Assembly (NCBI GenBank): GCA_947628485.1
Contig: CANRAA010000002.1
Location: forward strand, 1-43,648
Source of the DNA: an uncultured Bacilli bacterium
GTDB lineage: Bacteria > Bacillota_I > Bacilli_A > RF39 > UBA660
Reading direction: 5' to 3'
Length of the DNA: 43,648 nucleotides
Within the stretch, counting starts at the first letter, position 1; each line of letters begins with the position of its first letter. The position numbers and the translations under genes are program-made. Positions 7,373-31,020 of the stretch are shown here, piece after piece. The notes under the pieces were generated by a model that was given only the letters and a program-made list of their open reading frames with translations, had not been told where the DNA came from and made no database searches.

Positions 7373-7753
7373 TTATTCCTCAATTAAAGTAGGATTACTT
7401 TCTAATTCATCAATAATATCTTCCATACTTTTATTTTGATGATTAATTAGATATTCTTCTATTTCAAATGCATCTTTATTTAAAAATAAAGGATAACTAT
7501 CAAACAATAAATTTAAACTTTTAAAACCAACTTTTTGCATATAATCTATAAGACTTTTTACAGAGTCATAATCTCTTTCTAAAATAAAAGGATTACCTAC
7601 CACTATATTTCTTAATATATAATCATGACAATTAAGACTTTTTAATAATTCCAATATTTTATTAAAATCTTCTATATTATCATCATTTATAAATTCTTTT
7701 ATATTATTAAGATCTATTTCTCTTATACCTAACTCTATTAATTTATCTAACAT
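7373..7753 (-). CDS. Short mTERF-repeat-like protein (third of three)
   Basis: 126 aa with LIELGI...., LKSLNC....I.RNIVVGNPFIL and MQKVGFKS...LFDSYPLFL units of the same type as the two upstream genes. Its start overlaps the upstream gene by 11 nt, and pheS begins 18 nt downstream. Confidence 0.6.
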   Translation of the reverse strand: MLDKLIELGIREIDLNNIKEFINDDNIEDFNKILELLKSLNCHDYILRNIVVGNPFILERDYDSVKSLIDYMQKVGFKSLNLLFDSYPLFLNKDAFEIEEYLINHQNKSMEDIIDELESNPTLIEE

Positions 7754-8639
7754 CTTTTATTTCCTCCTCTTTATTATAAGGATACATTAAAAGTAATTCT
7801 TTTTTAGAAACCCCATATTTGTTCTTAAAATGCTTCTCTTTATAAAATAAATTTTTAAATTCTTCTGTTTTAATATCATTATTCACAAAATAATGATATC
7901 TAGCATAGGATAACTCAACACTCTGCATAAGATAATTAATGTTATTTATTATAATATAATCTAAACCTATCTCTTTATAAAAATTTATTTTATTAGTTAT
8001 ATTTTCAAAGCTTAAACCAAATAAAGCTGGTAATTTTAAACACATTTTTAAGACTTCTTCTTTAGTATATCCTAAAGACATAATATCCTCTATTTTTTGC
8101 TTTATAGCATTAAAACTTAAACCAAATAAAGTTGGTAATATTAAATACATTTTTAAGACTTCTTCTTTACTATAACCCAAAGACATTATATTCTCTATTT
8201 TTTGGTTTATAGTTTTAAAACTTAAACTATATAAAGATGGACATTTTATAGTCATTTTAATTGCTTCTTCTTTTGTATAACCTAAAGACATCAAATCTTC
8301 TATTTTTTGGCTTATGTTTTCCTTACTTAATAAAAATATAGTTGGTAAATTTTTTCCCATTTTTTTTATATTTTCTTTTGAGTATCCTAAAGATATCAAG
8401 TATTCAATTTTTTGGTTTAAATAATCAACGTTCCTCCCAATTATACAAGGAAAAAATTTAACTATTTTGATAATTTCTGCTTTTTTATATCCAAACTCTA
8501 AAAGAAAATTATTAATATCTTTAAAATGTTTTAATATAGTCTTCGGATTATAAGTGATAAGTGAACTTTTTTCTAACATTTTTTCAATATCTTTTTCTAA
8601 AAAACCAAAGTCTATTAAATAATCATATACTTCTAACAT
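7743..8639 (-). CDS. mTERF-repeat-like protein (second of three)
   Basis: 298 aa with an approximately 35-aa periodic unit QKIEDxMSLGY(T/S)KEExxKMxxxxPxLFxLSxxxIx repeated at least 5 times. This matches the mTERF motif pattern (L..LGfs...i..il...P.ll..s). Confidence 0.75.
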   Translation of the reverse strand: MLEVYDYLIDFGFLEKDIEKMLEKSSLITYNPKTILKHFKDINNFLLEFGYKKAEIIKIVKFFPCIIGRNVDYLNQKIEYLISLGYSKENIKKMGKNLPTIFLLSKENISQKIEDLMSLGYTKEEAIKMTIKCPSLYSLSFKTINQKIENIMSLGYSKEEVLKMYLILPTLFGLSFNAIKQKIEDIMSLGYTKEEVLKMCLKLPALFGLSFENITNKINFYKEIGLDYIIINNINYLMQSVELSYARYHYFVNNDIKTEEFKNLFYKEKHFKNKYGVSKKELLLMYPYNKEEEIKDVR

Positions 8640-9525
8640 CTTTTATTTCCTCCTCATTTTTATAAGGATACATTAAGAGTAATTCTTTTTTAGAAACTCC
8701 ATATTTGTTTTTAAAACGCATTTCATCATAAAACAAATTTTTAAAACTCTCTATTTTAATATTATTTTTCTTAAAATAATTATATCTAGCATAGGATAAT
8801 TCTAAACTTTGCATAAGATTTTTAGGATATTTCGTTACATAAAATTCAAAGCCAATTTCGCGATAATAATTTATCTTATTAGATATATTTTCAAAACTAA
8901 GACCAAATAAGGCCGGTAATTCTAACATTATTTTTAAAGTTTGCTCTTTTGTATATCCTAGAGACATTATATCCTCCATCTTTTGCTTGATATTTTCTAT
9001 ACTAAGAGACAATATTGTTGGCATAACAACAGTCATTTTTATTACCTCTTCTTTTTGATAACCTAAAGATATTAGAAATTCTAATTTTTGACTTAAGAAT
9101 TCAATATTATAAGCCCATACTGATGGTACTGAGGCTATTATTTTTATTACTTGTTTCTTGGTGTATCCTAAATTTGTTAAATCTTCAAGTCTTTTTTCTA
9201 ACGTTTTAATATTATAATTAAAAATTGCTGGTACTGATACTGTCATTTTAATTACTCGTTCTTTAGTATAACCTAAAGATATTAAATATTCTATCTTTTG
9301 TTTTATGTTTTCTACACTAAAACTATACAATGTTGGAGAATTTATGGCTATTTTTATAATTTGTAATTTGGTATAATCTAATTCTTTTAAATAATCGCTA
9401 ATATTTTTAATATGTTTTAATAATGTAGTTGGTACAAAAGCACTAATTGAATAATTGTTAAAAATTTCATCTACTTCTTCTTTTGTAAAACCAAATTCTA
9501 TTAAATAACTATAAACTTCTTCCAT
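8623..9525 (-). CDS. mTERF-repeat-like protein (first of three, first gene after the T-box)
   Basis: 300 aa, paralogous to 7743-8639 with the same repeat unit. A strong GAAGGAGG Shine-Dalgarno sequence lies directly after the T-box terminator. It overlaps the next gene by 17 nt. Confidence 0.75.
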   Translation of the reverse strand: MEEVYSYLIEFGFTKEEVDEIFNNYSISAFVPTTLLKHIKNISDYLKELDYTKLQIIKIAINSPTLYSFSVENIKQKIEYLISLGYTKERVIKMTVSVPAIFNYNIKTLEKRLEDLTNLGYTKKQVIKIIASVPSVWAYNIEFLSQKLEFLISLGYQKEEVIKMTVVMPTILSLSIENIKQKMEDIMSLGYTKEQTLKIMLELPALFGLSFENISNKINYYREIGFEFYVTKYPKNLMQSLELSYARYNYFKKNNIKIESFKNLFYDEMRFKNKYGVSKKELLLMYPYKNEEEIKDVRSI

Positions 9526-10359: not shown

Positions 10360-11142
10360 TTAATTATGTCGATTATTCTTTACTTTCTTTAATTCTTTAT
10401 AAGCATTATTTAAATATTTATTATTGCTTTTTCCATCATTTTTAATTTTTTCAACTCTTTCATTAATTTCTTGCTTAATTTCTTCAGTTTTAGAGTTATC
10501 TTCAACTTCTTTATCAATCTTTTTTTCTTCGATTTCTTCTTGTTCTTCTTGTTTAATTTCCTTAGATAAATTAAATATTTTTAAAATATCTTTAACTATA
10601 ATATATAATGCTGGAATTAAAATCACTAATAACCAACCTAGACTACTTGATAAGAAGAATTGTAGTTTACCAAGTTTTGGAATAACGGCTTTAACGACCC
10701 CTACAACATTACTTTTCTTAACACAAACGGCATCTTCAGAAGTATTATTATCTCCTCTGGTTACCAAACATTTCGAGCCATCATCTAAGGTTTTCATGTC
10801 AACAACACGATGGGTAACCGTCATCCCATAATTAACTTGCCATGTCGATATATACGTAATAACATCATTTATTTTAACATCATCAATACTATTTATTTTG
10901 GTATTAATAATAACATCATATTTATCAATCGTGGGTTCCATACTTTCCGAAACCACGGTATAAACCGAAAACTTAGGTTCAAACATTTCACCATGGGTAG
11001 CATATAACCTAACCGAAATATAATAGTACACTAATAAAATTCCCACAACAACTAGTAAGATAAAAACAGTCCAACTTACTACTGTGGAAATATATTTAAA
11101 TAAACCTTTGAAATTGTAACGTGTTTCTTCTGCGCTTTCCAT
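10360..11142 (-). CDS. sipW: Signal peptidase I, ER/archaeal (SipW) type, with a long charged C-terminal tail
   Basis: It has the SESMEPTI box, THRVV (the His of the Ser-His type) and TRGDNN, flanked by N- and C-terminal TM helices. An approximately 75-aa E/K-rich tail follows the second TM helix. Confidence 0.85.
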   Translation of the reverse strand: MESAEETRYNFKGLFKYISTVVSWTVFILLVVVGILLVYYYISVRLYATHGEMFEPKFSVYTVVSESMEPTIDKYDVIINTKINSIDDVKINDVITYISTWQVNYGMTVTHRVVDMKTLDDGSKCLVTRGDNNTSEDAVCVKKSNVVGVVKAVIPKLGKLQFFLSSSLGWLLVILIPALYIIVKDILKIFNLSKEIKQEEQEEIEEKKIDKEVEDNSKTEEIKQEINERVEKIKNDGKSNNKYLNNAYKELKKVKNNRHN

Positions 11143-11211: not shown

Positions 11212-11940
11212 CTAGGCACTTGCTTTATACTCTATTTTAAAATTAGCCCTATAAACTTTACCAACCGTACTTTCTCTATTTCTAATTATGGTCTCACTTT
11301 TCCAATACATTTTCTTACTTTCTCCCGGTTTACTCGTAAGTTCATAATTAGTAGCCACATTAATATTACCCGTAATTCCTCCAACATCATAGAAATTACT
11401 AGTGATAGCGTCAATAGTACTAAAAGGCGTACTAATTACATAATTAACATTTTCCCAAGTTTCATTATCAAAAGAATAGGAAAATCTTACTATAACATCA
11501 CTATTAATACTACTAATTGCATTATATACAAAATCATTTTTTTCAATTTCATATTTAACATCAAAAACTAAACGACCATTTTCTTTAGAATCCTCTTTAG
11601 TATTAACCTCAACATTAGCATATGACTCAATATTTACTTCACTTTCCGTTATGGTATCATCAATAGCTTTTTCAAACGGACCATTATTGGTAATTAAAGT
11701 TTTACTTTTAACATTGTTTACTTCAATTACTTCTTTATTATCTTTTATATTAAATTTTTTCTCGTAATAATTACCTATATAAAATAGAGTACAAAATAAA
11801 GTCAACGTAAAAAGAACTATTAAGATGATTAATAGAATAACACTGGTATATTTATTACTATGTGCCACTTTTTTTATCTCTAAATCTTCTTTATCATCAA
11901 TCTTACTTTTACTACTAGTATCAGTAACCCTTTTTTTCAT
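11212..11940 (-). CDS. Membrane-anchored, beta-rich hypothetical protein directly upstream of sipW
   Basis: The ORF is open to 11994, but the ATG at 11940 follows AAGGAAGG. There is a single N-terminal TM helix and then a polar, beta-rich domain. It could be a SipW substrate or partner, but I see no clear AYF motif. Confidence 0.6.
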   Translation of the reverse strand: MKKRVTDTSSKSKIDDKEDLEIKKVAHSNKYTSVILLIILIVLFTLTLFCTLFYIGNYYEKKFNIKDNKEVIEVNNVKSKTLITNNGPFEKAIDDTITESEVNIESYANVEVNTKEDSKENGRLVFDVKYEIEKNDFVYNAISSINSDVIVRFSYSFDNETWENVNYVISTPFSTIDAITSNFYDVGGITGNINVATNYELTSKPGESKKMYWKSETIIRNRESTVGKVYRANFKIEYKASA

Positions 11941-12134
11941 ATTGACCTTCCTTATTCTTAAATAAAGTATAACAAAATAATGGTTATTTTGCAATTATTT
12001 TATGCATTTTTAAAAATAACGAGGTAATAGATTTGTTTCGTAAAACTCACCATCCTCGTTTTCATTTTGGATAAAATTCTAGATAATCTTTGTCTTCTAT
12101 CTTCCCTAGTATATAACCTTAATCATATAATCAT

Positions 12135-12266
12135 TCAAGTTATAGAAGGCTTTGGGCGAACCGCATTCGTATTGTTCACCCAATCGTTGTTCAAGTTGCC
12201 GTCTGTATTCACATTCCACGCATTGTAATTGCTGCCGGACTTGCCATACCTAACTGCATATTTCAA
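12135..12266 (-). pseudogene. Orphan, Asn-codon-rich fragment homologous to the extreme C-terminus of the surface-protein paralogs (DGR template-repeat-like or silent-cassette-like)
   Basis: The minus-strand translation is (TTG)KYAVRYGKSGSNYNAWNVNTDGNLNNDWVNNTNAVRPKPSIT*. It aligns to RYGMEGDTNEAWAIYQDGRL... of B and to RYGHDNGDFNVWYVRKDGSF...VIRP of C. Ten of 43 residues are Asn, all encoded AAT or AAC. The fragment starts about 225 nt (12266) downstream of the B stop, on the same strand. There is no ATG start. Confidence 0.5.
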
Positions 12267-12393
12267 GATTACCTACTTATATTATACAACATAATTTATC
12301 AAAACAATAATTTCTTCAAAAAAGAAAAATAGAGACCCACGCATAAGTATGGCTCCCTTACAAAAGTGTAAAACACTTTTTCCTTGCATATTC

Positions 12394-12423
12394 ATAATAG
12401 CATATATGTATCAACAATGTCAA
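12394..12423 (-). promoter_or_regulatory. Sigma-A-like promoter reading toward the orphan fragment
   Basis: On the minus strand, TTGACA (12423-12418) is followed by an 18-nt spacer and TATTAT (12399-12394). TGTCGAA and TGTCATA boxes lie just upstream (12452-12436). Confidence 0.4.
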
Positions 12424-12490
12424 AACTTCTCATATTATGACAAAATTCGACATTTTCTGCCGAACTTTATGTATTATTATTTTAATTTGA

Positions 12491-14320
12491 TTATTGTACT
12501 CTAAATGGATCAGTGCTTATTCCACTACCTGTAAGTGTAACACTTGACTGCAAATAGAAGACATATCTGCCGGTTCTACTGTGCCCTGTTTGCAAGGGGG
12601 CCAGGCGACCATCTTGATATATAGCCCACGCCTCATTGGTGTCACCCTCCATCCCATACCTACTCATCGTCCACTCGAAAAACTCCCAACAGCTCTCCTT
12701 ACAAGAATACAACCAACTATTTGCATTTGAATAATCACCAGGCCAATCAAACGCACTATCCGACCACTCAGATGGATAATCCCAAGAATTATAATAATCA
12801 CTGGCATACATTAATCCTATATATGCTTGTACTGTTCCATCTTGCTTTCCTGTTGTTTTTGATGTCCATGGATATGTTTTTGTTTGTTCCATGTTCCATG
12901 TATGCTTTTCGATTAATCCTTTTATTCTTGTGTTTATTGAATTGTAAAATTCTCCATTCAAGTTTGTATATAAGTCTGATTCATTCCAAATCACTTTACT
13001 GTATAGATAACCCCAATAGCCATAAACCCCATAACGATCGTGAATCACTTTTAGTTTGCCATCTGTTGTTATCCCTATTATTCGGTACATATCACGACCA
13101 TCTTGACATTTGTCTGTCGACGTAGAGCCTAAACAGATATAATTGTTTGTTACTTCATCTTTTGTTCCATAATATCTATACATTCCATCCACTGCTGTTG
13201 TTTGTAATGTTTGAACTCCGTTTGCACCAGTTGCATATTTCCTTAAATAATCTATTGGTCCACTTTCTTTTGTTTTAAATGCATAATGTACTCTATTTGC
13301 TATACCACTATTGCCTGCTTTGTCTTTGGCATAGACATAGAAAGTGTAACTTGTTCCGGCTTTTAAACTGTTTACTACAATACTTGCACTTGTTACACAG
13401 GTATAGTCTGTCTCTTTTGCTGAGTTCTTTTGGGAGTAACAATATTTTTCTATTCCACTTGTTGGACTTACTCCTATCTTATTATCATTTGCTGTTATAC
13501 TTAATGTTAAGTTTGTTTCATTTATTGTTGGGGCTGTTACTTTTGTTACTGTTGGTGGTGTTACATCATATATTATGGCACTTGTCTTAACACTTGATAT
13601 ATTACCAGCTTTATCTCTTACATATCCTCTTACCGTCTTTGCCCCTTCTGTTGTATTGGTAAAGGTATAACTTGTACTTTTTCCTACTGTTACCCATGTA
13701 CAATTCTTTGTATCTGTTCCTTCGGTTACACACATATCTTGAGGATTTGTTTCGGTATATGTAAAATATACTGTATTTGCCTGTAGATTGGTATATTTTG
13801 TAGCATCTTCATTTTTTATATAAAACTTATTTATTACTGGTAAGGTCTTATCATAGGTTATTACATCACTACTTGATATTGATTTATTCCCATATTTATC
13901 TTTAACAAATCCAAAGATGGTTTTGTTTCCATCTGTTTTAGTATCTTTAAATGTATAACTATACTGTTTATTTGAAGTTATGTTTTGCCATGTACAACTA
14001 CTTACATTATTTGTTTCTGTTATACATACTTGATCTATATTTTTATTATTTGTTCCTGGGGTTATATATACTGTATTACCTCCCGCATTTGTATACTTTG
14101 GAGTTGTTGTTTGTTTTATATAGAATGATGTTATCTTTGGTTTAAAATCTCCTACCTTACTATTAAATATTTGGACTGGGTCTGTTACACTATTATAATA
14201 AGCATGAGTATCTTTTACTGCTACATTTATTATTGTTATTACTAACAGTAATGTTATAACCCCTACTAATGTTATTCCTTCTTTACTCTTTATTAGTTCT
14301 TTTAGTTTTTCTTTATTCAT
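12491..14320 (-). CDS. Surface/secreted protein, paralog B (two Cys-pair modules, Fn3/Ig-like module, full C-terminal domain)
   Basis: 609 aa. The signal anchor is followed by KDTHAYYNSVTDPVQ. There are two tandem approximately 100-aa Cys-pair modules, a DVTPPT linker and an Fn3-like module. The C-terminal domain carries LYRYYG, NNYICLG, MYRIIG..DGKLKVI, W.ESDLYTNLNGEFYNS and the ending ...FYLQSSVTLTGSG. Confidence 0.8.
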   Translation of the reverse strand: MNKEKLKELIKSKEGITLVGVITLLLVITIINVAVKDTHAYYNSVTDPVQIFNSKVGDFKPKITSFYIKQTTTPKYTNAGGNTVYITPGTNNKNIDQVCITETNNVSSCTWQNITSNKQYSYTFKDTKTDGNKTIFGFVKDKYGNKSISSSDVITYDKTLPVINKFYIKNEDATKYTNLQANTVYFTYTETNPQDMCVTEGTDTKNCTWVTVGKSTSYTFTNTTEGAKTVRGYVRDKAGNISSVKTSAIIYDVTPPTVTKVTAPTINETNLTLSITANDNKIGVSPTSGIEKYCYSQKNSAKETDYTCVTSASIVVNSLKAGTSYTFYVYAKDKAGNSGIANRVHYAFKTKESGPIDYLRKYATGANGVQTLQTTAVDGMYRYYGTKDEVTNNYICLGSTSTDKCQDGRDMYRIIGITTDGKLKVIHDRYGVYGYWGYLYSKVIWNESDLYTNLNGEFYNSINTRIKGLIEKHTWNMEQTKTYPWTSKTTGKQDGTVQAYIGLMYASDYYNSWDYPSEWSDSAFDWPGDYSNANSWLYSCKESCWEFFEWTMSRYGMEGDTNEAWAIYQDGRLAPLQTGHSRTGRYVFYLQSSVTLTGSGISTDPFRVQ

Positions 14321-22645: not shown

Positions 22646-23705
22646 CTAGTCAATATTTTTTAAATTATATTCTAGCATTTCTTTTATTTCGCCATTTAAT
22701 ATTTTATCGGGGTCATTACTTTCAAAATTACTCCGATTATCTTTCACAAGTTTATAAGGCTCTAGAATGTAACTGCGGATTTGACTTCCAAATTCAATAT
22801 TTTTAGAAGTATCTTTTAAACTATTTTTTTCATTCTCTATTTCTTTAATTTTTTGCTCATATAATTTATTCTTTAATAATTTCATCGCCATTTCTTTATT
22901 TTTAAGTTGGCTTCGTTCATTTTGACAAGTAACCACTATCTTACTTGGTAAATGGGTAATTCGAACAGCTGAATTAGAAGTATTAACCGATTGTCCACCA
23001 GCGCCACTTGAGTGATAAACATCAATTTTTAAATCGTTTTCATTTATTTCAATGTTGGGTACTTCTAAAAATTCGGGTGTAACGGTAACGGAAGCAAATG
23101 AGGTATGTCTTCTTTTCCCTGCATCAAAAGGAGAAATTCTAACTAACCTATGAACCCCACTTTCTCTTTTTAAATAACCATAAGCATATTCGCCAGAAAT
23201 TCTTATAATCGCCGATTTAATCCCTGCTTCTTCCCCAGGGTTTGAATAAATAACTTCAAATTTATAATTATATTTTTCACAAAATCTTTCATACATTCTT
23301 AAAAGCATTAAGGACCAATCACAAGACTCAGTTCCTCCAGCTCCCGGATGAATTTCTAAAAAACATGGAAGACTATCATATTCCCCACTTAAATGCACTT
23401 CTTTTTCAAGGGTATTTATTTCTTCATTTATTTTAAAGTATTCGTCTTCATATTCTTTCTCAGTCATTTCATTTTTTAAAAATTCTAAGGTATTAATACT
23501 TTCTAATAAATTATTATAGTTATAAACATTTTTCTTTATTCTATTGTATTCCATATTAATTACGTTAGCTTTATCGTAATCTTCCCAAAAACCATCACTA
23601 TTAATAATACTTTCTAATTCTTTTAATCTTTCTTCCTCTTTAGGAATGTCAAAGTGACCTCCCAATAGTCATTAATAATTCTTTTAAAGTTTCTGTATTT
23701 CTCAT
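22646..23705 (-). CDS. prfB: Peptide chain release factor 2 (requires a programmed +1 frameshift)
   Basis: The SPF and GGQ motifs are present. Frame 0 reads MRNTETLKELLMTIGRSL and then UGA. The downstream frame continues DIPKEEERLKELE. Confidence 0.95.
23649..23663 (-). promoter_or_regulatory. RF2 programmed +1 frameshift site
   Basis: The minus strand reads GGGAGG UCA CUU UGA C, which is the internal Shine-Dalgarno-like element plus the CUU UGA C slippery/stop context. Confidence 0.9.
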
Positions 23706-26700
23706 AATTTGGCTCCTTTACTATAGTCTACCAAAATTTCTTCATTAGATAAAGTACTATTTTGACTTAAAGATGCTAAATAACTCTTTAAAATTTCTGT
23801 CATCTTTCGATAACTTTCTTCATCTAAATGTTCAATAAAATTATCATAATTAAAACCAACTTTATTGCCTTCATAATGGCCTTCGCCAAAATCCCATATT
23901 TGATATAATTCTTTAAATTCTTTAAAATCATGAGCCAAAGAGGCCTTTTCTACAAAAGTCTGACAAGCATCTTCAAAAGAACCACCATTTTGAATAATCC
24001 AATTTTCAATGCCCACTCCCCCAAGGCCTTTATCTAACTTTTTATATATACCATTTTCTTTTAATAACATTTTTGCTTTTAAAATATTTTCAATCACTAA
24101 ATTATAATAATCCAAATTATCTTTTTTAATACCTTCTAAATAACTTTTTAAAGCCTCATCTGTCGATAGTTCTATTTTATCGGTTCTTACCCCGAAAGTT
24201 ATATCAATATCAACAGGACTATCTAACCCTGGTATCGTAACATTTTCAAGTCTCAAATTTCCCTCCGAAGTATCTGGTTTACCACTTTCATTTTTATGAG
24301 GAAGACTATCTAATAAGACATTTTTTATTGTGGCTAATTTTTCGCTATTGGAATAGATGGTATCATCTAACTTTAAATAAAAATCATAATCTCCCGAACC
24401 CGGAATATTAGTTCCTCTTCCCGTTGATCCAGTATTAATAAGTTCCATTTTACCAGGGACTAAATCTCTAATATAACCATAATGAAGTTCGCCAAAATTT
24501 TCTAATACTTTAGCCAAATAATTGGTAATACTTTTTCTTTTTACTTCTACTTCTTTTTCATTTAATAATATTCTTTTAGCCAATTCTTCTTTTTCTTCTT
24601 TAGTTTTAGTTTTTTCTTCTTCTAAAATTTTTGTAGAATAATGATATACATCATCACTATAGTATTTTAAACCTGCCATTTTATTTCTTAAATCTAAATA
24701 ATCTTCATAAGTAAAAATTAAAGACCCACTTTTATCAACAACGGGAATATAAAAACCATTTCTAGCTATTTCTAAATTTATTCTTTTATCTTTTTCTTGA
24801 CTAATAATATAATCTATTTCACTTGAAGCAAATCCTGTTCTAATTCCATAATGGGTCGAATCTTTTTCATAACCAGTTCTAAATAATTCTAGTTTATGAA
24901 AATCATTTTGAACATTTTCAACATCTTCTTTACCTCTAGTTATTAAAAATCTTCCCTCTTTATTTTTTAAAACAACCCAAATAGGACCATAACCACCAGC
25001 TTCGATATTAAAATTACCCCCACTAACTAAAGAAGGATCAGTAATTAAAGATACATCTGTATCAAGTGGCGTACAATCACTATCAGCAGCATAGCCCAAA
25101 AATTCTTTAGCGACAGACCCATTTTGTAAAATAGAGCTTAAAAACTTAATATCATTAAGACCTTTAAGTAAATCTCCTTTTTCAAAGACAAAAGGCTTTT
25201 TAGCATTAAGAGTTCCTTTTTGAGTAGCAAGCAAAGTCGCATTTTCCATAACACTTTTTAACTCATCAAAAGATTTAATCCCTAAAGGAGAAGCAAACAT
25301 TCTTGCTATACGATCTAATAAATCATATCTTTTGGTAACGTTAAATAAAGTTTTTAATTCTTCTAAATCATCTAATAATTTATCTTTATTTTTCCTTGGA
25401 TTTTTAAATTCATTTTGACTTAAATTATATAAACTATTTAAACTATGGGCAAATTCTTTTAAAGTTTTTATCTCTTCTTCTCGTAAAGCATTAAATAAAT
25501 TAACATCTATAGCTACTTTACTAAATAAACTACTGCCTTTTTCCAGTAAACTAATAAATTCTTTTAATGATCTATTGTTAGAACCTATCGCACATTTTAA
25601 TAAATCTAAATAAATTACTTTATTTCTTTCAATACCTTCACTATTTTTTAGAACTGGTGATAGTTTATCATAACCTTCAAAACCTAAAGCATTGGGGTGT
25701 AAATATTCAAATACATAATATACTTTGACTAGCATTGGTAAGTTATTTTCTAAAAAAATACTCTCAATATCTTTAAATTTTTGTTCAGGCTTAGATTCTT
25801 TAAGTAACATATCTATTAAGACATCTCTTATTCTTTTTACTTCCAAAGAATTAGATTTTACAACACTCTCTAAGATAGTTACTATTTTATCAAGGTCTTC
25901 TTTAAAAATATTAGCATTGTTAATTATATATTCTTTAAAATTAGTTTTAATTATTTCATGATCTATTTTTTGATATCTTTTTAAGACTTCCAATTTATTT
26001 TTAACTTCATCAAAATAATCTAATCCTTTAATTGAATTTAACCATTCGGGAAATTCATATTTACTATCTAAATAGATAAATAAATCTCCATATTTTTGCA
26101 TAATTTTTTGTAAATTACCATAACCTAAATTGGCCGCAAAGGCTTTAAGAGGACCCTGAGCTAAAAAATTATCAATAACAATATTCTCAAAAACCTCTAA
26201 ATTATTTAAAATATCTTCTATATATAAAGTACGATTAAAATATTTATTTTTAACTTCTTTAGATACATTTGCATCTATTAAAAACAAATCTTTATTATTT
26301 AAAACAAAATCTTTTGGAAAAAAATCGATACTTAAAACATTATTGTCATATTTTATAAGATATTCTCTTAAAAAACTATAAGCATTTTCTTTTAATTTAT
26401 TAACATCGTCAACATCTTTTAATTTATTATCTAATTTCGATAAAGCCTTATTATTATAAATATACATAATGACTTTTATAATATCATCGTAATCTTTACT
26501 ACTTACACTATATAATTTAATAATTTTACTAAAACATTTTAAATCTTTAATATAAGGTAAATAGCCAAAAATATCATCACTTTTTTCTTTTAATTCCTCT
26601 ATTTCTTCAATACTTAATTTACTTATATCATCCATTGTTAAACTTTTATTATAAAATTTTTCTTTTATTTCTGGATTAAATAAATTACTTAAAAACATAT

Positions 26701-27097
26701 TAGGATGTTTTTCTTTATAATCAGTTGAAAAAGTATTTTCATTATATCTAATTAATTCCCCATTTTTAATATCACAATTATGTAATATTACTTCTCCATC
26801 TACCGTAACATACGCAAAATCTAATTTAGCTTTCGTAGAAGAAAAATCTAAAGTTTTACTTTCAGGAATATATAATTCTATTCCTTCCCATTCTTTGTAT
26901 GGAATACTACTTAAATCTTTTTTAGTTAGTTCTAATTCTAAGTCATAATATTTTTGCATGGCATCAATTTCAAATGTCTGCATATCAAAAGAAGGATTGC
27001 CTTCATTTAAATCCATTGTCCTTTGGGTATCTTCAAATAATTGTCTTAGTTCCGTTTTTATTTTGATAAATTCTTCTTTTGTCATTTTATCGAACAT
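23702..27097 (-). CDS. Giant protein (about 1131 aa) with a C-terminal class-I (archaeal CCA-adding/poly(A) polymerase-like) nucleotidyltransferase domain
   Basis: The catalytic signature is GSTGRGTNIPGSGDYDFYL (G[SG]...D.D), with a downstream VDIDITF and a neck-like KGLGGVGIENWIIQNGGSF. The N-terminal approximately 850 aa are unrecognised. Its stop TGA overlaps the prfB ATG (ATGA). The ATG at 27097 follows a GGTGAT Shine-Dalgarno sequence. Confidence 0.65.
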   Translation of the reverse strand: MFDKMTKEEFIKIKTELRQLFEDTQRTMDLNEGNPSFDMQTFEIDAMQKYYDLELELTKKDLSSIPYKEWEGIELYIPESKTLDFSSTKAKLDFAYVTVDGEVILHNCDIKNGELIRYNENTFSTDYKEKHPNMFLSNLFNPEIKEKFYNKSLTMDDISKLSIEEIEELKEKSDDIFGYLPYIKDLKCFSKIIKLYSVSSKDYDDIIKVIMYIYNNKALSKLDNKLKDVDDVNKLKENAYSFLREYLIKYDNNVLSIDFFPKDFVLNNKDLFLIDANVSKEVKNKYFNRTLYIEDILNNLEVFENIVIDNFLAQGPLKAFAANLGYGNLQKIMQKYGDLFIYLDSKYEFPEWLNSIKGLDYFDEVKNKLEVLKRYQKIDHEIIKTNFKEYIINNANIFKEDLDKIVTILESVVKSNSLEVKRIRDVLIDMLLKESKPEQKFKDIESIFLENNLPMLVKVYYVFEYLHPNALGFEGYDKLSPVLKNSEGIERNKVIYLDLLKCAIGSNNRSLKEFISLLEKGSSLFSKVAIDVNLFNALREEEIKTLKEFAHSLNSLYNLSQNEFKNPRKNKDKLLDDLEELKTLFNVTKRYDLLDRIARMFASPLGIKSFDELKSVMENATLLATQKGTLNAKKPFVFEKGDLLKGLNDIKFLSSILQNGSVAKEFLGYAADSDCTPLDTDVSLITDPSLVSGGNFNIEAGGYGPIWVVLKNKEGRFLITRGKEDVENVQNDFHKLELFRTGYEKDSTHYGIRTGFASSEIDYIISQEKDKRINLEIARNGFYIPVVDKSGSLIFTYEDYLDLRNKMAGLKYYSDDVYHYSTKILEEEKTKTKEEKEELAKRILLNEKEVEVKRKSITNYLAKVLENFGELHYGYIRDLVPGKMELINTGSTGRGTNIPGSGDYDFYLKLDDTIYSNSEKLATIKNVLLDSLPHKNESGKPDTSEGNLRLENVTIPGLDSPVDIDITFGVRTDKIELSTDEALKSYLEGIKKDNLDYYNLVIENILKAKMLLKENGIYKKLDKGLGGVGIENWIIQNGGSFEDACQTFVEKASLAHDFKEFKELYQIWDFGEGHYEGNKVGFNYDNFIEHLDEESYRKMTEILKSYLASLSQNSTLSNEEILVDYSKGAKL

Positions 27098-27171
27098 AAA
27101 AATCACCAACTATTATAATTATTTTACAATAATTGGTGATATATTTCTATATTTATAAATTAATTTGACAA

Positions 27172-28758
27172 TTAATAGATCTTTGTTATATCTTTATGGG
27201 TTTCACTATCACTATAATCGATTTTGATTTTATCATCACTACTTAAGTATGGAAGGCGGTATCTATCTACAGTTACATTCGCCACATATAAATCATCATT
27301 ACTATCAATTATATAGTAGTAAGTATTACCTTCAATTACCACGGCTTTGATTGATTTAATTGTAATTTCTTTTTCGGTTTCTATACTACCTGTATGTAGA
27401 GATTCTCCTAAATATTTTTCAGCTGCTGCTTCAATGCCAAGTGAGGCATCACTAACGACAACTTTTTGATAATCTTCCACATCAATAAAAGCATACATTT
27501 TAACAAGACCCGCATTATCTTTTAAACTTAATAAATAAGTTGGTTTATTATTTAAGTTAATTAAAAGTGGGAAGGAAGCATCATAACCTTTTTCTTGAAC
27601 TAAACCTTCGGCTGAGGCCATCGCACTAAATTCTTCGGCTCCAGGTACTAGATAATAATTCGTTTCTTTCGTTCTTAAATTAGCTAGAACAAATCCTAAG
27701 TTAGACTCATCAGATGATACCGAAGTAATTCCCGTATACAAATAAACATCATCATCCATAACTAAATAATTGTAGCCTTCCGTAGTATTAATAACATCTC
27801 TTTGACCAAAAATCGAGTTAAAGAAACCATTTCGGTATTCACCCCAGTTATCTACTTGTTCGATAATAAGATCCGCACTATAAACATGATCAACCCACGT
27901 TGGCACATCTTCTACTTTATATTTTTCACTCTTACCAGTTACGGGGTCTAAGATAACAACACCTGTTATTTCTTTCTTTAAACCAACGCCAACATATTTA
28001 ACGGTTGGAACAATCCAATAAGGATTACCTTCATTATCTATTTCAAATGAAGCTTCATCAAAGATGGTTGTTGGGTATTGGAGTCTTAAATGTCTATCTA
28101 AATTTTCAAAGAAGAAAGCACTTGGCATATAACGCATTCCTTTAGATAGTTCTTCTAAAGAGGCACTACCCGTTACTGAATTAACCATAATATAACCTTT
28201 AATACCATCTTTTCGGTTAGTAAAATATTTAATAATATCTACATATTCTAAAGGAGTAACTCTAACTATATCATTATTATAGTTTATTTGGGTATAAACA
28301 TCACTAACATAAAATTGGCTTACCCAACTTGTAAATTCTCCCATTTTTCGGTCTCCTAATTTTTGACTACTTTCTTTGTCAATTAAAGGAGTTTTCGTAA
28401 AATCAACGGGTTTAACATCACTGACAAATTCACTATTCGTCGCCACCGTTATTCTTTCACTATAACTTTTCGCATTAAATAAAGGACTTAAAATAAAGTT
28501 CACAACAATAATAAGTCCAAAAACCCCAACTACTCCTAAGCATAAATAATTTAAAATTTTATTATCTAAATAAATTCTTCCTCTTCTGACAAAGCCTTCC
28601 AAGGTTGTAAAAAATCTAACAATTATAAAGAAGACTAAAATCATTAACGCATAAGTATAAAATAAAGGACTACTTAAGTTAATTGGGGGAAGTACAAAAT
28701 AATAGGTAACAAGAGCAAAAACCAAAGTAGACACAATAGTTATAATATTTCTTTTCAT
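27172..28758 (-). CDS. Hypothetical membrane protein (3 N-terminal TM helices plus a large extracytoplasmic domain)
   Basis: 528-aa ORF with three hydrophobic helices in the first approximately 100 aa. I recognise no family. Confidence 0.55.
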   Translation of the reverse strand: MKRNIITIVSTLVFALVTYYFVLPPINLSSPLFYTYALMILVFFIIVRFFTTLEGFVRRGRIYLDNKILNYLCLGVVGVFGLIIVVNFILSPLFNAKSYSERITVATNSEFVSDVKPVDFTKTPLIDKESSQKLGDRKMGEFTSWVSQFYVSDVYTQINYNNDIVRVTPLEYVDIIKYFTNRKDGIKGYIMVNSVTGSASLEELSKGMRYMPSAFFFENLDRHLRLQYPTTIFDEASFEIDNEGNPYWIVPTVKYVGVGLKKEITGVVILDPVTGKSEKYKVEDVPTWVDHVYSADLIIEQVDNWGEYRNGFFNSIFGQRDVINTTEGYNYLVMDDDVYLYTGITSVSSDESNLGFVLANLRTKETNYYLVPGAEEFSAMASAEGLVQEKGYDASFPLLINLNNKPTYLLSLKDNAGLVKMYAFIDVEDYQKVVVSDASLGIEAAAEKYLGESLHTGSIETEKEITIKSIKAVVIEGNTYYYIIDSNDDLYVANVTVDRYRLPYLSSDDKIKIDYSDSETHKDITKIY

Positions 28759-28889: not shown

Positions 28890-30947
28890 CTAACTTGGTA
28901 TGTATGGATTACTTTCAGTACCTTCTCCTGTTAGTTTAACGTTGGATTGGAGATAGAAGACTGGACGAATCACATATAAGTAGGTCAAATCATAGAAACT
29001 CGTGTCACCGGCATAAAAGGACCCGTCTTTCCGCACATACCACACATTGAAGTCACCGTTATCGTGGCCATACCTAGTCATTGTCCATTCAAATTGTTGT
29101 TCACCATCACTTGTACTTGTTCCGTTGGTTATATATAACCAACTATCCGTATTTCCATCTCCACTATATCCTCCCCATGATTTATAATAATCACTTGCAT
29201 ACATTAACCCTATTGGATATGCGTCTATTGTTAGTGGTGCTTTTTCTTGTTCCGGTGGACAATCAGCTGAGTAATCACATAAATACGTTACTTTTCCTTT
29301 ATACCATTTTACTTCTTTTATCTTACTCTTTATTCTTGTATCTAGTTTTGTTGTATCATTGTAAAATAATGCACTATTCAAATTTCTTTGTAAATCTGCT
29401 TCATCCCAATCTGTATCAGTCAAATAATTATTATGCCATGGATATTTTCCTATGGATATAGCTTTGATTACTTTTATTTGTCCTTTATCAATGTCTAATT
29501 TAGATGAACCACTTTCTGTTCCATCAGCTATTCCTATTATTCTATACATGTATTTATTTTTATCTTCATCACTTTGACATGTGTTTCCACTTGGTCCTAA
29601 ACAGATATAGTTATTATCTACTACATCATATTTTCCATAATATCTATATAAGCCATTGACTGGATTGTCTTGTAATGTTGATATTTTTGTTCTATCATTT
29701 ATCAAGTCTTGTCCTGTTATTCCGAAAGACTCTGTTTCAAATGTATGACTTGTTTTGTTTGAGATGCCACTATTACCGGCTTTGTCTGTTAAGTAGAAGT
29801 AATATGTGTATGATGTTCCATCTTGTAAATTACTTATTGTTATATTGCCATCTGTACTTGTTACACATGTACCTACATCTGTTGAATTACTATTTGTTGA
29901 ATAACAATATTTATCTATTCCTGATAAATCAGTATTTGCATTTACTTTTAATGTTACACTTGTTTCACCTAATTCAATGTCTTCTATTGTATCTATACTT
30001 GGTGGTGTTACATCATAGATTATACTTGCTGTTACTTGAGTTGATATATTTCCTATCTTATCTTTTAGATAACCATAATAGGTATGATCTCCTTCTCTTT
30101 CTTCTAAGGTAATATTTTCTTGTATAGATTGTTGCCCATTTGTTGGTTTCCATTGGCATCCTTCATAACTATCATTGGTTGTTATACAATAGTCTGTTAC
30201 ATCATTATCACTCCAACTTAAATGTAAGATGTTTTCTAAACTATTTGTATATTGTTGTCCATCTACCTTTTCATTAAAATAAAATTCACTTACTGTTGGA
30301 GCTTCACTATCGGTATTACATTTAAATTCATCTATTATTATATCAACATTTAATGATCTCTTTGCTAAATATGATTGATCATCATTTCTATTAGTAAATT
30401 TTAAATAAGCTTTTATATATTGTGTATTGGTATCTGTTATGACAAATTCTAACTCTGCTGGAAACTTTTCATTTATTTTTGTTAAATCTGTTATATTTGT
30501 ATATATTCCATTTATTAAACTTATTTCTAAATCTCCTTCTCTTATTAAAGAAGCCATATCGCCACTTAAATTAACTTTAGCTTTGGCAGTACATACATGT
30601 TTCTCTTCTAAATCTCCAATTACTTCTACTTTCCCTATCTCTGTTAATCCATCTTCTTTATTTGTTACATAAGGTAGTTTACTATCACTTGTGGCATAAT
30701 ATTCTCTATCTATTCTATTATAAGCCATATCTTTAACATCTAACCTTATATGAAAATCTTCTAATCCTCCAGAGAGTTTTATTTGCTTATTACTTCCGGT
30801 TGTTATTGTTACTTTGGTACTTGTTCCTTCTCCATTTACTTGTAAACTAAAGTAAGCATAAGTTGAACCTACTACAACTAGAAGTAATATAAGTACTATT
30901 ATGATACTTCCTATTAATATTTTCTTTTTATTATTCTTATTTTCCAT
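28890..30947 (-). CDS. Surface/secreted protein, paralog C (extra N-terminal module, Cys-pair module, Fn3/Ig-like module, full C-terminal domain)
   Basis: The signal anchor is followed by GSTYAYFSLQ, a close match to the SipW-cognate G-T-x-A-Y-F-S motif. An extra approximately 190-aa beta-rich module follows. The rest is collinear with A and B and ends ...VIRPVFYLQSNVKLTGEG. The ATG at 30947 follows a TAGGAG Shine-Dalgarno sequence, although the ORF-track start is at 31001. Confidence 0.8.
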   Translation of the reverse strand: MENKNNKKKILIGSIIIVLILLLVVVGSTYAYFSLQVNGEGTSTKVTITTGSNKQIKLSGGLEDFHIRLDVKDMAYNRIDREYYATSDSKLPYVTNKEDGLTEIGKVEVIGDLEEKHVCTAKAKVNLSGDMASLIREGDLEISLINGIYTNITDLTKINEKFPAELEFVITDTNTQYIKAYLKFTNRNDDQSYLAKRSLNVDIIIDEFKCNTDSEAPTVSEFYFNEKVDGQQYTNSLENILHLSWSDNDVTDYCITTNDSYEGCQWKPTNGQQSIQENITLEEREGDHTYYGYLKDKIGNISTQVTASIIYDVTPPSIDTIEDIELGETSVTLKVNANTDLSGIDKYCYSTNSNSTDVGTCVTSTDGNITISNLQDGTSYTYYFYLTDKAGNSGISNKTSHTFETESFGITGQDLINDRTKISTLQDNPVNGLYRYYGKYDVVDNNYICLGPSGNTCQSDEDKNKYMYRIIGIADGTESGSSKLDIDKGQIKVIKAISIGKYPWHNNYLTDTDWDEADLQRNLNSALFYNDTTKLDTRIKSKIKEVKWYKGKVTYLCDYSADCPPEQEKAPLTIDAYPIGLMYASDYYKSWGGYSGDGNTDSWLYITNGTSTSDGEQQFEWTMTRYGHDNGDFNVWYVRKDGSFYAGDTSFYDLTYLYVIRPVFYLQSNVKLTGEGTESNPYIPS

Positions 30948-30967
30948 ATTACAACTCCTATAATTTA

Positions 30968-31020
30968 ATTTATACTTCAATTTTATTATATCATACTTCA
31001 AGTAAAATTGAAGTATAAAT
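30968..31020. promoter_or_regulatory. Perfect 18-bp inverted repeat (candidate operator) between paralog C and its XRE regulator
   Basis: ATTTATACTTCAATTTTA (30968-30985) and TAAAATTGAAGTATAAAT (31003-31020) are separated by a 17-nt spacer. The spacer contains a third ATACTTCAA half-site. Confidence 0.55.

Follow-up and report, generated by a model that had tools for sequence, protein, structure and literature searches.

An asparagine-codon-rich fragment beside a DUF6273-type surface-protein gene of an uncultured Bacilli bacterium is a probable DGR template repeat

The locus described here raises the question of what a short copy of the end of a surface-protein gene, start-less and rich in asparagine codons, is doing a few hundred nucleotides downstream of such a gene. 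The window, that is the whole stretch of DNA analysed, is a contig of 43,648 bp and 27% GC which carries pheST, ftsH, tilS, secG, spo0A, pgk and a prfA-like gene. On its (-) strand, 224 nt beyond the stop codon of the gene named paralog B, which lies on the same strand, begins a DUF6273-tip fragment (12135-12266) that can be read as an ORF of 43 codons with a TTG start, 43 aa, and is translated as KYAVRYGKSGSNYNAWNVNTDGNLNNDWVNNTNAVRPKPSIT, followed by a stop. The sequence-only reading from which we started had given the sequence, position and translation exactly, and had rightly described the fragment as start-less, on the strand of B and at about 225 nt from it. Asparagine accounts for 10 of the 42 residues, every one of them encoded by AAT or AAC, and the GC content of the scaffold is 44-48%, versus 27% contig-wide. 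The central part, a template-repeat core of 99 nt (12153-12251, (-) strand), encodes RYGKSGSNYNAWNVNTDGNLNNDWVNNTNAVRP in the target frame on a GC-rich scaffold and has AAY codons at 10 of its 33 positions. Among 87,100 windows of 33 codons, taken in all six frames, those with at least eight AAY codons and a GC content of at least 0.40 all overlap the fragment, and the asparagine-codon richness already remarked upon is thus, in combination with high GC, seen nowhere else in the 43.6-kb contig.

The fragment is probably not itself a gene, since the body of a gene is absent upstream and the frame is lost after VRP, where it is broken by a 2-nt insertion beyond which the homology to the paralogs resumes (TTCTAT...). 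A real small gene for an asparagine-rich peptide of 43 aa, to which the open frame with its TTG start would correspond, is scarcely credible: no homologous called ORF was found among 5.8 billion proteins, no ribosome-binding site was seen, and the sequence is accounted for by homology to the tips, in the frame of the tips.

A different answer is offered by diversity-generating retroelements (DGRs), which rewrite the tips of surface proteins. A template repeat (TR) is transcribed and copied by a reverse transcriptase (RT) that misreads adenines; in target genes provided with a homing element, the cDNA then takes the place of the corresponding 3'-terminal variable region (VR). AAY codons can give up to 15 amino acids without stops in this way, and codons free of adenine stay fixed. 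We propose that the fragment is probably the TR of a DGR serving C-type-lectin-like surface proteins of the DUF6273 type, because of its AAY design, its homology to TRs adjacent to RT genes and its adenine-specific relation to the tips of the family. It would be transcribed and copied by a DGR RT with misreading of the adenines, and the cDNA would replace the VR at the 3' end of those DUF6273 genes that bear the homing element.

The targets nearest at hand are the paralogs of the window itself. Paralog B (609 aa; 12491-14320, (-) strand) has, by eye, a TasA/SipW-like N-terminal signal motif, followed by Ig-like/fn3 domains and a C-terminal DUF6273-type domain, and paralog C (about 685-703 aa; 28890-31001, (-) strand) has the same architecture. 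Their tips (12554-12661 for B and 28953-29075 for C, both on the (-) strand) form GC spikes of 0.48-0.57, and third-position C reaches 24-36% in tips and fragment (24-32% in the tips of B and C) versus 7.7% in housekeeping genes. The homology between the fragment and these tips is real, as had been claimed, but weak at the protein level (40-45% identity over 20 aa, E 0.015-0.025 within the window), with visible DNA anchors that both have in common, AGGTATGG, GYGTGG, GAYGG and TTCGNCCA..TTCTAT. A hand count against B over 36 nt had found 10 of 13 fragment adenines substituted against 6 of 23 other bases. The arithmetic is right, and adenine enrichment against B and C does hold within the core of 36-42 nt, but it loses significance across the full tips, where 17/31 adenines versus 31/67 other bases differ in B (p=0.28) and 16/32 versus 24/67 in C (p=0.13). 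Furthermore, the GC-rich 3' element that would act in homing is absent in B and carries three changes in C, where it reads GTGATTCGTCCA. With no significant adenine bias across the whole tip, and with the 3' element absent or degenerate, B and C are, on this sequence evidence, not current partners of the template; the fragment is not their TR and neither tip is its cognate VR, in line with the earlier statement that no active pair is formed with either. When the window was searched with the adenine-masked TR, allowing up to 3 mismatches, it matched the TR alone and no VR.

The third paralog, A (409 aa; 26-1255, (-) strand), is cut off inside its DUF6273 domain. It leaves its homologues after ...NQDGTV, enters AT-rich sequence and stops. 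Its tip is absent because the contig ends 25 nt past the stop; this is a rearrangement or an assembly break, and the missing tip is possibly among the targets of the TR.

A partial, promoter-less copy beside an expressed paralog also calls to mind a silent donor cassette from which the tips of B, C or other paralogs are rewritten through gene conversion, and mosaic recombination does occur in the family. Antigenic variation of the pilS/pilE and vls type works by gene conversion from silent cassettes, and the fragment is like those systems in being a partial, non-expressed copy of a tip near the gene of an expressed surface protein. Unlike them, it is a single copy rather than one of an array of diverse cassettes, it holds asparagine at nearly every variable site where a donor would hold usable diversity, and its mismatches are adenine-specific (see below), a pattern that gene conversion does not yield. 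In addition, no tract identical to B or C was found. We therefore reject the recombination cassette which the sequence-only reading had offered as an alternative, and consider any donor role highly unlikely.

The candidate TR has a much larger set of possible targets in related genomes. The C-terminal 257 aa of paralog B have 67 homologues, mostly proteins of ~380 aa and several with the Pfam domain DUF6273; B shows 46-48% identity to the family (E down to 2.8e-50). The homologues come from rabbit-gut assemblies such as 'uncultured Bacilli bacterium Lapin-002__bin32'. In one of them, P0001, DUF6273 (PF19789) scores 33.5 bits against a cutoff of 23.5, the match covering positions 19-170 of the 172 of the profile and ending at the VRP motif; P0006 (17.9 bits), paralog A (19.2 bits) and paralog B (14.4 bits) fall under the cutoff of 23.5 bits. 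An AF2 model of the C-terminus of B (pLDDT 84.8, pTM 0.86) matches models of viral DUF6273 proteins with E values from 8e-8 to 1e-3, and gave no significant fold match to any solved structure in the PDB, C-type lectins included. In the literature DUF6273 is described as a domain targeted by DGRs, the VR forming its C-terminal end (PMC10743442; PMC11792537; bioRxiv 10.1101/2024.10.15.618418). The homologous loci repeat one cassette order: an oppositely oriented HTH regulator gene, the gene of a ~240-aa protein bearing a SipW-type signal, that of the ~380-aa DUF6273 protein and a variable toxin/Abi gene. This last gene, 3' of the DUF6273 cassette, differs by locus (AbiEi_4, RelB, PemK or Abi_2 in L001, L005, L006-L009 and L010-L012), and the slot resembles a variable defence-gene position. 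The family is also subject to mosaic recombination: P0002 and P0007 are identical over ~163 N-terminal residues and then diverge.

When the VRs of these related genes were aligned to the 99-nt core (12153-12251) and the mismatches were split between adenines and other bases of the TR, a significant adenine bias emerged in seven of them. It is strongest for P0006, with 20/30 adenines versus 6/66 other bases mismatched (p=1.4e-8), followed by P0003 (18/32 versus 8/67, p=6.6e-6), P0008 (21/30 versus 15/66, p=1.4e-5), a 394-aa paralog (19/32 versus 13/67, p=1e-4), the 408-aa gene of L005 (16/32 versus 11/65, p=9e-4), P0004 (17/30 versus 17/66, p=0.004) and P0009 (18/32 versus 21/67, p=0.016); for P0012, P0014 and one further gene of L013 it is not significant. 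In an ungapped core of 69 nt, P0006 differs from the fragment at 13 of 22 adenines and at 2 of 47 other bases. Twelve of these 13 adenine changes fall at codon positions 1-2, whereas the AAY codons retain their third bases; this codon-position pattern is the mark of mutagenic retrohoming and not of ordinary divergence. The targets, present or past, would then be the ~380-aa DUF6273 paralogs of the lineage, and not B or C.

The same signature is visible at the level of the whole family. The columns that lie under the asparagine codons of the fragment are hypervariable among 47-61 homologues, and the residues K, E, Q, M and W, which are unreachable from AAY through adenine changes alone, occupy 24 of 324 cells in these columns (7.4%) versus a background of 20.6%. 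Under the two ACN threonine codons, T, S, P or A are found in 32/47 and 45/61 homologues (68-74%), and the residues whose codons are free of adenine (W, G, L, V, A and V-R-P) are conserved across the family. The variability profile of the family is a mirror of the adenine map of the fragment.

These results bear directly on another explanation, namely that the fragment is an ordinary pseudogene, left by decay of the 3' part of a DUF6273 gene, with incidental asparagine codons and no role as a template. The fragment is indeed start-less, frame-broken and homologous to gene tips, and there is no RT nearby. However, in the six columns of the family that were tested the frequency of asparagine is low to moderate (2/47, 4/47, 2/47, 16/61, 13/61 and 0/61), and its chance occurrence in every one of them has a probability below about 1e-7; VR differences at positions 1-2 of the AAY codons, with the third position kept, are the opposite of neutral or selective divergence; and the fragment matches confirmed TRs, as described below. 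We consider a pseudogene improbable.

A TR and its VRs are also expected to differ at their 3' boundary, and the sequences fit this expectation. The putative boundary element (12142-12164, (-) strand) consists of GCGGTTCGCCCA, a GC-rich 12-mer common to the family VRs, followed in the TR by AAGCC and then by TTCTAT; in the VRs, GTC stands in the place of AAGCC between the same two common parts, and GGTTCGCCCAGTCTTCTAT is carried by the VRs of P0006, P0004 and the 394-aa paralog. The codons CGC, GTC and TTC of this element are atypical for a genome in which third-position C is 7.7%. The difference fits an IMH*-like sequence in the TR and an IMH-like sequence in the VRs, making the 12-mer region a putative homing element.

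Links to complete DGR cassettes were found in two places. The 3' end of the TR, GTGAAYAAYACGAAYGCGGTTCGCCC, occurs once in JGI metagenomes, as a 26-nt match at the locus L017, where it closes an asparagine-rich repeat (...NYFNNNNANEFNWNTNSSNNNVNNTNAVRP) that has the end of a target gene on one side and, on the other, an avd-sized ORF followed by an RT gene. The order of L017 is therefore target, TR, avd-like ORF and RT; the RT is recognised by RVT_1 (E=1.3e-18) and shows the motifs SIGAMTSQ and YMDD, and a further match of 13 nt, TCCGGCAGCAATT, is shared with the fragment on the 5' side. The RT of L017 has 1,294 homologues, of which one low-GC match was inspected for its context (P0079, at the locus L018). 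L018, on a chromosome of 29% GC, is arranged as target, TR, bAvd and RT, and its TR peptide NGFNVNSNGNLNNNNVNNSIGARP is identical to the NAWNVNTDGNLNNDWVNNTNAVRP of the fragment at 14 of 24 positions, both following the pattern N.(W/F)NVN(T/S).GNLNN..VNN(T/S)..(A/V)RP. Its own TR/VR pair differs at 22/35 adenines versus 6/85 other bases, a 3-nt indel included, which is on the scale of the fragment versus the family VRs. The VR of this pair (1795-1925 versus 2165-2295) is one codon longer than the TR, which shows that VR/TR pairs can differ by a small indel. A spacer motif common to L017 and L018 (CATTCACT..AGTGAAACAG) is absent from the window. L018 was also considered as the RT of the lineage itself and was discarded, as it belongs to an unrelated organism in which the shared neighbour gene is just 53% identical. 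Taken with the adenine bias of the family VRs and the family profile, the matches to the TRs of L017 and L018 support the DGR-template reading first suggested by the fragment alone.

The archetype of such cassettes is that of Bordetella phage BPP-1, with the canonical architecture target, TR, avd and RT (Wu et al. 2018, PMC5758913). Like canonical cassettes, among which L017 and L018 are the nearest, the fragment is an AAY-rich TR of ~100 nt on the same strand as a gene of the target family and a few hundred nt 3' of it, with adenine-specific mismatches to its VRs and with a GC-rich 3' element, putatively for homing, that it has in common with the VRs and after which TR-specific bases follow. 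Unlike them, it has neither RT nor avd beside it or elsewhere on the contig, and the adjoining gene, B, is no cognate target. In surveyed DGRs the TR adjoins the RT and the accessory gene avd is present in about 74% of cases; a target may lie far away, and avd, TR and RT function in trans (PMC5758913).

The missing RT is the main difficulty. The whole 43,648-bp contig was covered by a Pfam search of the ORFs of at least 100 aa on the coding strands, together with a scan for YxDD, with pheST, ftsH and tilS read by eye instead; no match to RVT_1, bAvd or an Avd-like family and no RT-like ORF bearing YxDD was found, which bears out the initial remark that neither RT nor Avd is present in the window. 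Around the sampled family genes, no RT, Avd or TR was seen in 16 loci from ~12 assemblies (L001-L016 and L020), in flanks of up to 10 kb, less at contig ends. One of these loci, L020, is syntenic with the locus of B, with SecG, HTH genes and the cassette, and is without a TR. In a search for further copies, which had been recommended, the adenine-masked core of 42 nt was run against 185,579 species-representative genomes and retrieved the VR of P0006 (in L004) alone; no second TR came to light there.

A phage origin was considered as well. No phage relative of the fragment was found by DNA and protein-pattern scans of viral contigs, IMG/VR included, or by blastn and tblastn against GenBank phages, and the adenine-masked 42-nt core had no match in viral contigs. 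These searches weigh against an assembly artefact, in which the TR of a phage or of another genome would have been joined into the contig. The suspicion is a natural one for a window that is a whole metagenome-type contig in which paralog A ends abnormally at the edge, but the fragment is internal to the contig, with low-GC sequence on either side, its upstream flank has homologues at other loci of the lineage, and nothing similar occurs in IMG/VR or in GenBank phages. We regard such an artefact as very improbable.

If the fragment is a TR, is it still used? There is no sign of ongoing diversification: for each of P0012, P0009 and P0014, tips of identical sequence were met in 4-5 samples (by a look-up of exact identity, in which variants could be missed), and the clusters at 90% have 1-2 members with identical tips and zero tip variants. 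The best VR, that of P0006 from another genome, shows 6 non-adenine mismatches and a 3-nt indel to the fragment. Non-adenine identity between the fragment and the best VR is 91-96%, and flanking intergenic DNA of the same genomes is 89% identical; these values fit both a TR used in trans and a relic. We give almost an even chance to a relic, well preserved, whose cassette has lost its avd and RT genes, and a slightly smaller one to a TR still used in trans, with the RT encoded elsewhere in the genome. More tentatively, and with some doubt, the fragment could be a free-standing 'satellite' TR with transcript bounds of its own, served in trans by a genomic or a phage-brought RT and diversifying a dispersed chromosomal family of DUF6273 surface proteins with TasA/SipW-like signal motifs.

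The transcription signals around the TR are relevant to this point. The sequence-only reading had placed a promoter at 12423-12394; the site exists, with an 11/12 match, and is probably part of a small conserved element distinct from the fragment. This element (12318-12423, (-) strand), located 5' of the TR, comprises a promoter-like TTGACA-18-TATTAT, two hairpins and a terminator-like T-run, of which ~75 nt would be transcribed. Sequences of L010 (12330-12430; aligned part 12345-12429) and of L012 (2625-2723) are 82% identical to it; there it sits 3' of an Abi_2 gene and the remaining 110 nt hold no TR. It is probably a unit separate from the TR, perhaps a small RNA or a leader; a search of Rfam with 11800-12600 and with the tail of L010 gave nothing credible. 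Because the hairpins and the T-run end at about 12318, 5' of the fragment, the promoter need not drive the fragment, and the TR is left without a clean promoter of its own. On the other side, about 90 nt 3' of the TR, a long hairpin with a U-run (12012-12060, (-) strand; fold of 12000-12290 with an MFE of -64.1 kcal/mol, z=-2.25) might mark where a TR transcript ends; it was not called by a simple terminator scan. One GC-rich sequence, GGCCACGTGCTTCAGCACGTAAACCC..., stands at the end of contigs from two different assemblies, at L010 (12480-12543) and at L012 (2775-2815), ~60 nt past the small element; neither the window nor viral contigs yielded a match to it, and a repeated or mobile element may begin there.

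Among known systems, those of gut phages share the target domain. DGRs acting on DUF6273 have been described for the tentaclins of nd4/nd12 (PMC10743442), for the Faecalibacterium prophages Lelie, CP11, Roos and Pioen (PMC11792537) and for a hotspot of Toutatisvirus (bioRxiv 10.1101/2024.10.15.618418). As in the present family, those systems act on DUF6273, whose C-terminal end holds the VR and which is often combined with Ig-like/fn3 domains; unlike in those phages, the proteins considered here are chromosomal, carry TasA/SipW-like N-terminal signal motifs and form a dispersed multigene family in uncultured Bacilli, with no phage relatives found. Some phages of the Toutatisvirus paper keep their targets without a DGR (bioRxiv 10.1101/2024.10.15.618418), whereas at our locus it is a TR that has been kept. 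The proposal of one element serving many dispersed targets would have an analogue in Trichodesmium erythraeum, whose DGR has as TR a discrete non-coding RNA with its own promoter and at least 12 dispersed target genes (PMC4143802); there, however, the TR lies beside the RT gene, whereas here there is no RT on the contig.

What is at stake differs between these possibilities. Should the TR still be in use, TR and RT can be unlinked in nature, and DGR finders anchored on the RT would miss such templates together with their targets; a satellite TR, if true, would be a DGR architecture outside the catalogued ones, in which TR and RT are always adjacent. Should it be a relic, it would provide a record, and a date, for the decay of the DGR by which a large family of secreted lectin-like proteins was shaped in one lineage of gut Bacilli, and would also explain the spikes of GC and codon usage at the DUF6273 tips. 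Either way, the DUF6273 family, B and C included, would be marked as having ligand-binding tips written by a retroelement.

Some further features of the region deserve mention. In L020 (2620-4457), from another MAG, genes of 226 aa and 380 aa occupy the place of B in a locus whose synteny is shown by SecG and HTH genes; compared with these, paralog B (609 aa) looks fused or expanded, with Ig-like/fn3 domains between the signal and the lectin-like domain. Just 3' of the TR lie the genes of a membrane-anchored protein of 242-260 aa and of no known family (11212-11994, (-) strand) and of a SipW-type signal peptidase I (10360-11142, (-) strand; TIGR02228, 86 bits, cutoff 51.85), and the latter fits the TasA/SipW-like signal motifs (AYY/AYF, by eye) of B and C. 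Directly 3' of paralog C, two ORFs of 1135 aa and 528 aa (23702-27109 and 27172-28758, (-) strand) have no Pfam or NCBIfam match, and the longer one bears a C-terminal GSTGRGT...DYD motif that recalls nucleotidyltransferases. Finally, three consecutive ORFs at 7373-9525 on the (-) strand match the mTERF domain (E 1e-32, 1e-29 and 1e-3), a family mostly known from organelles.
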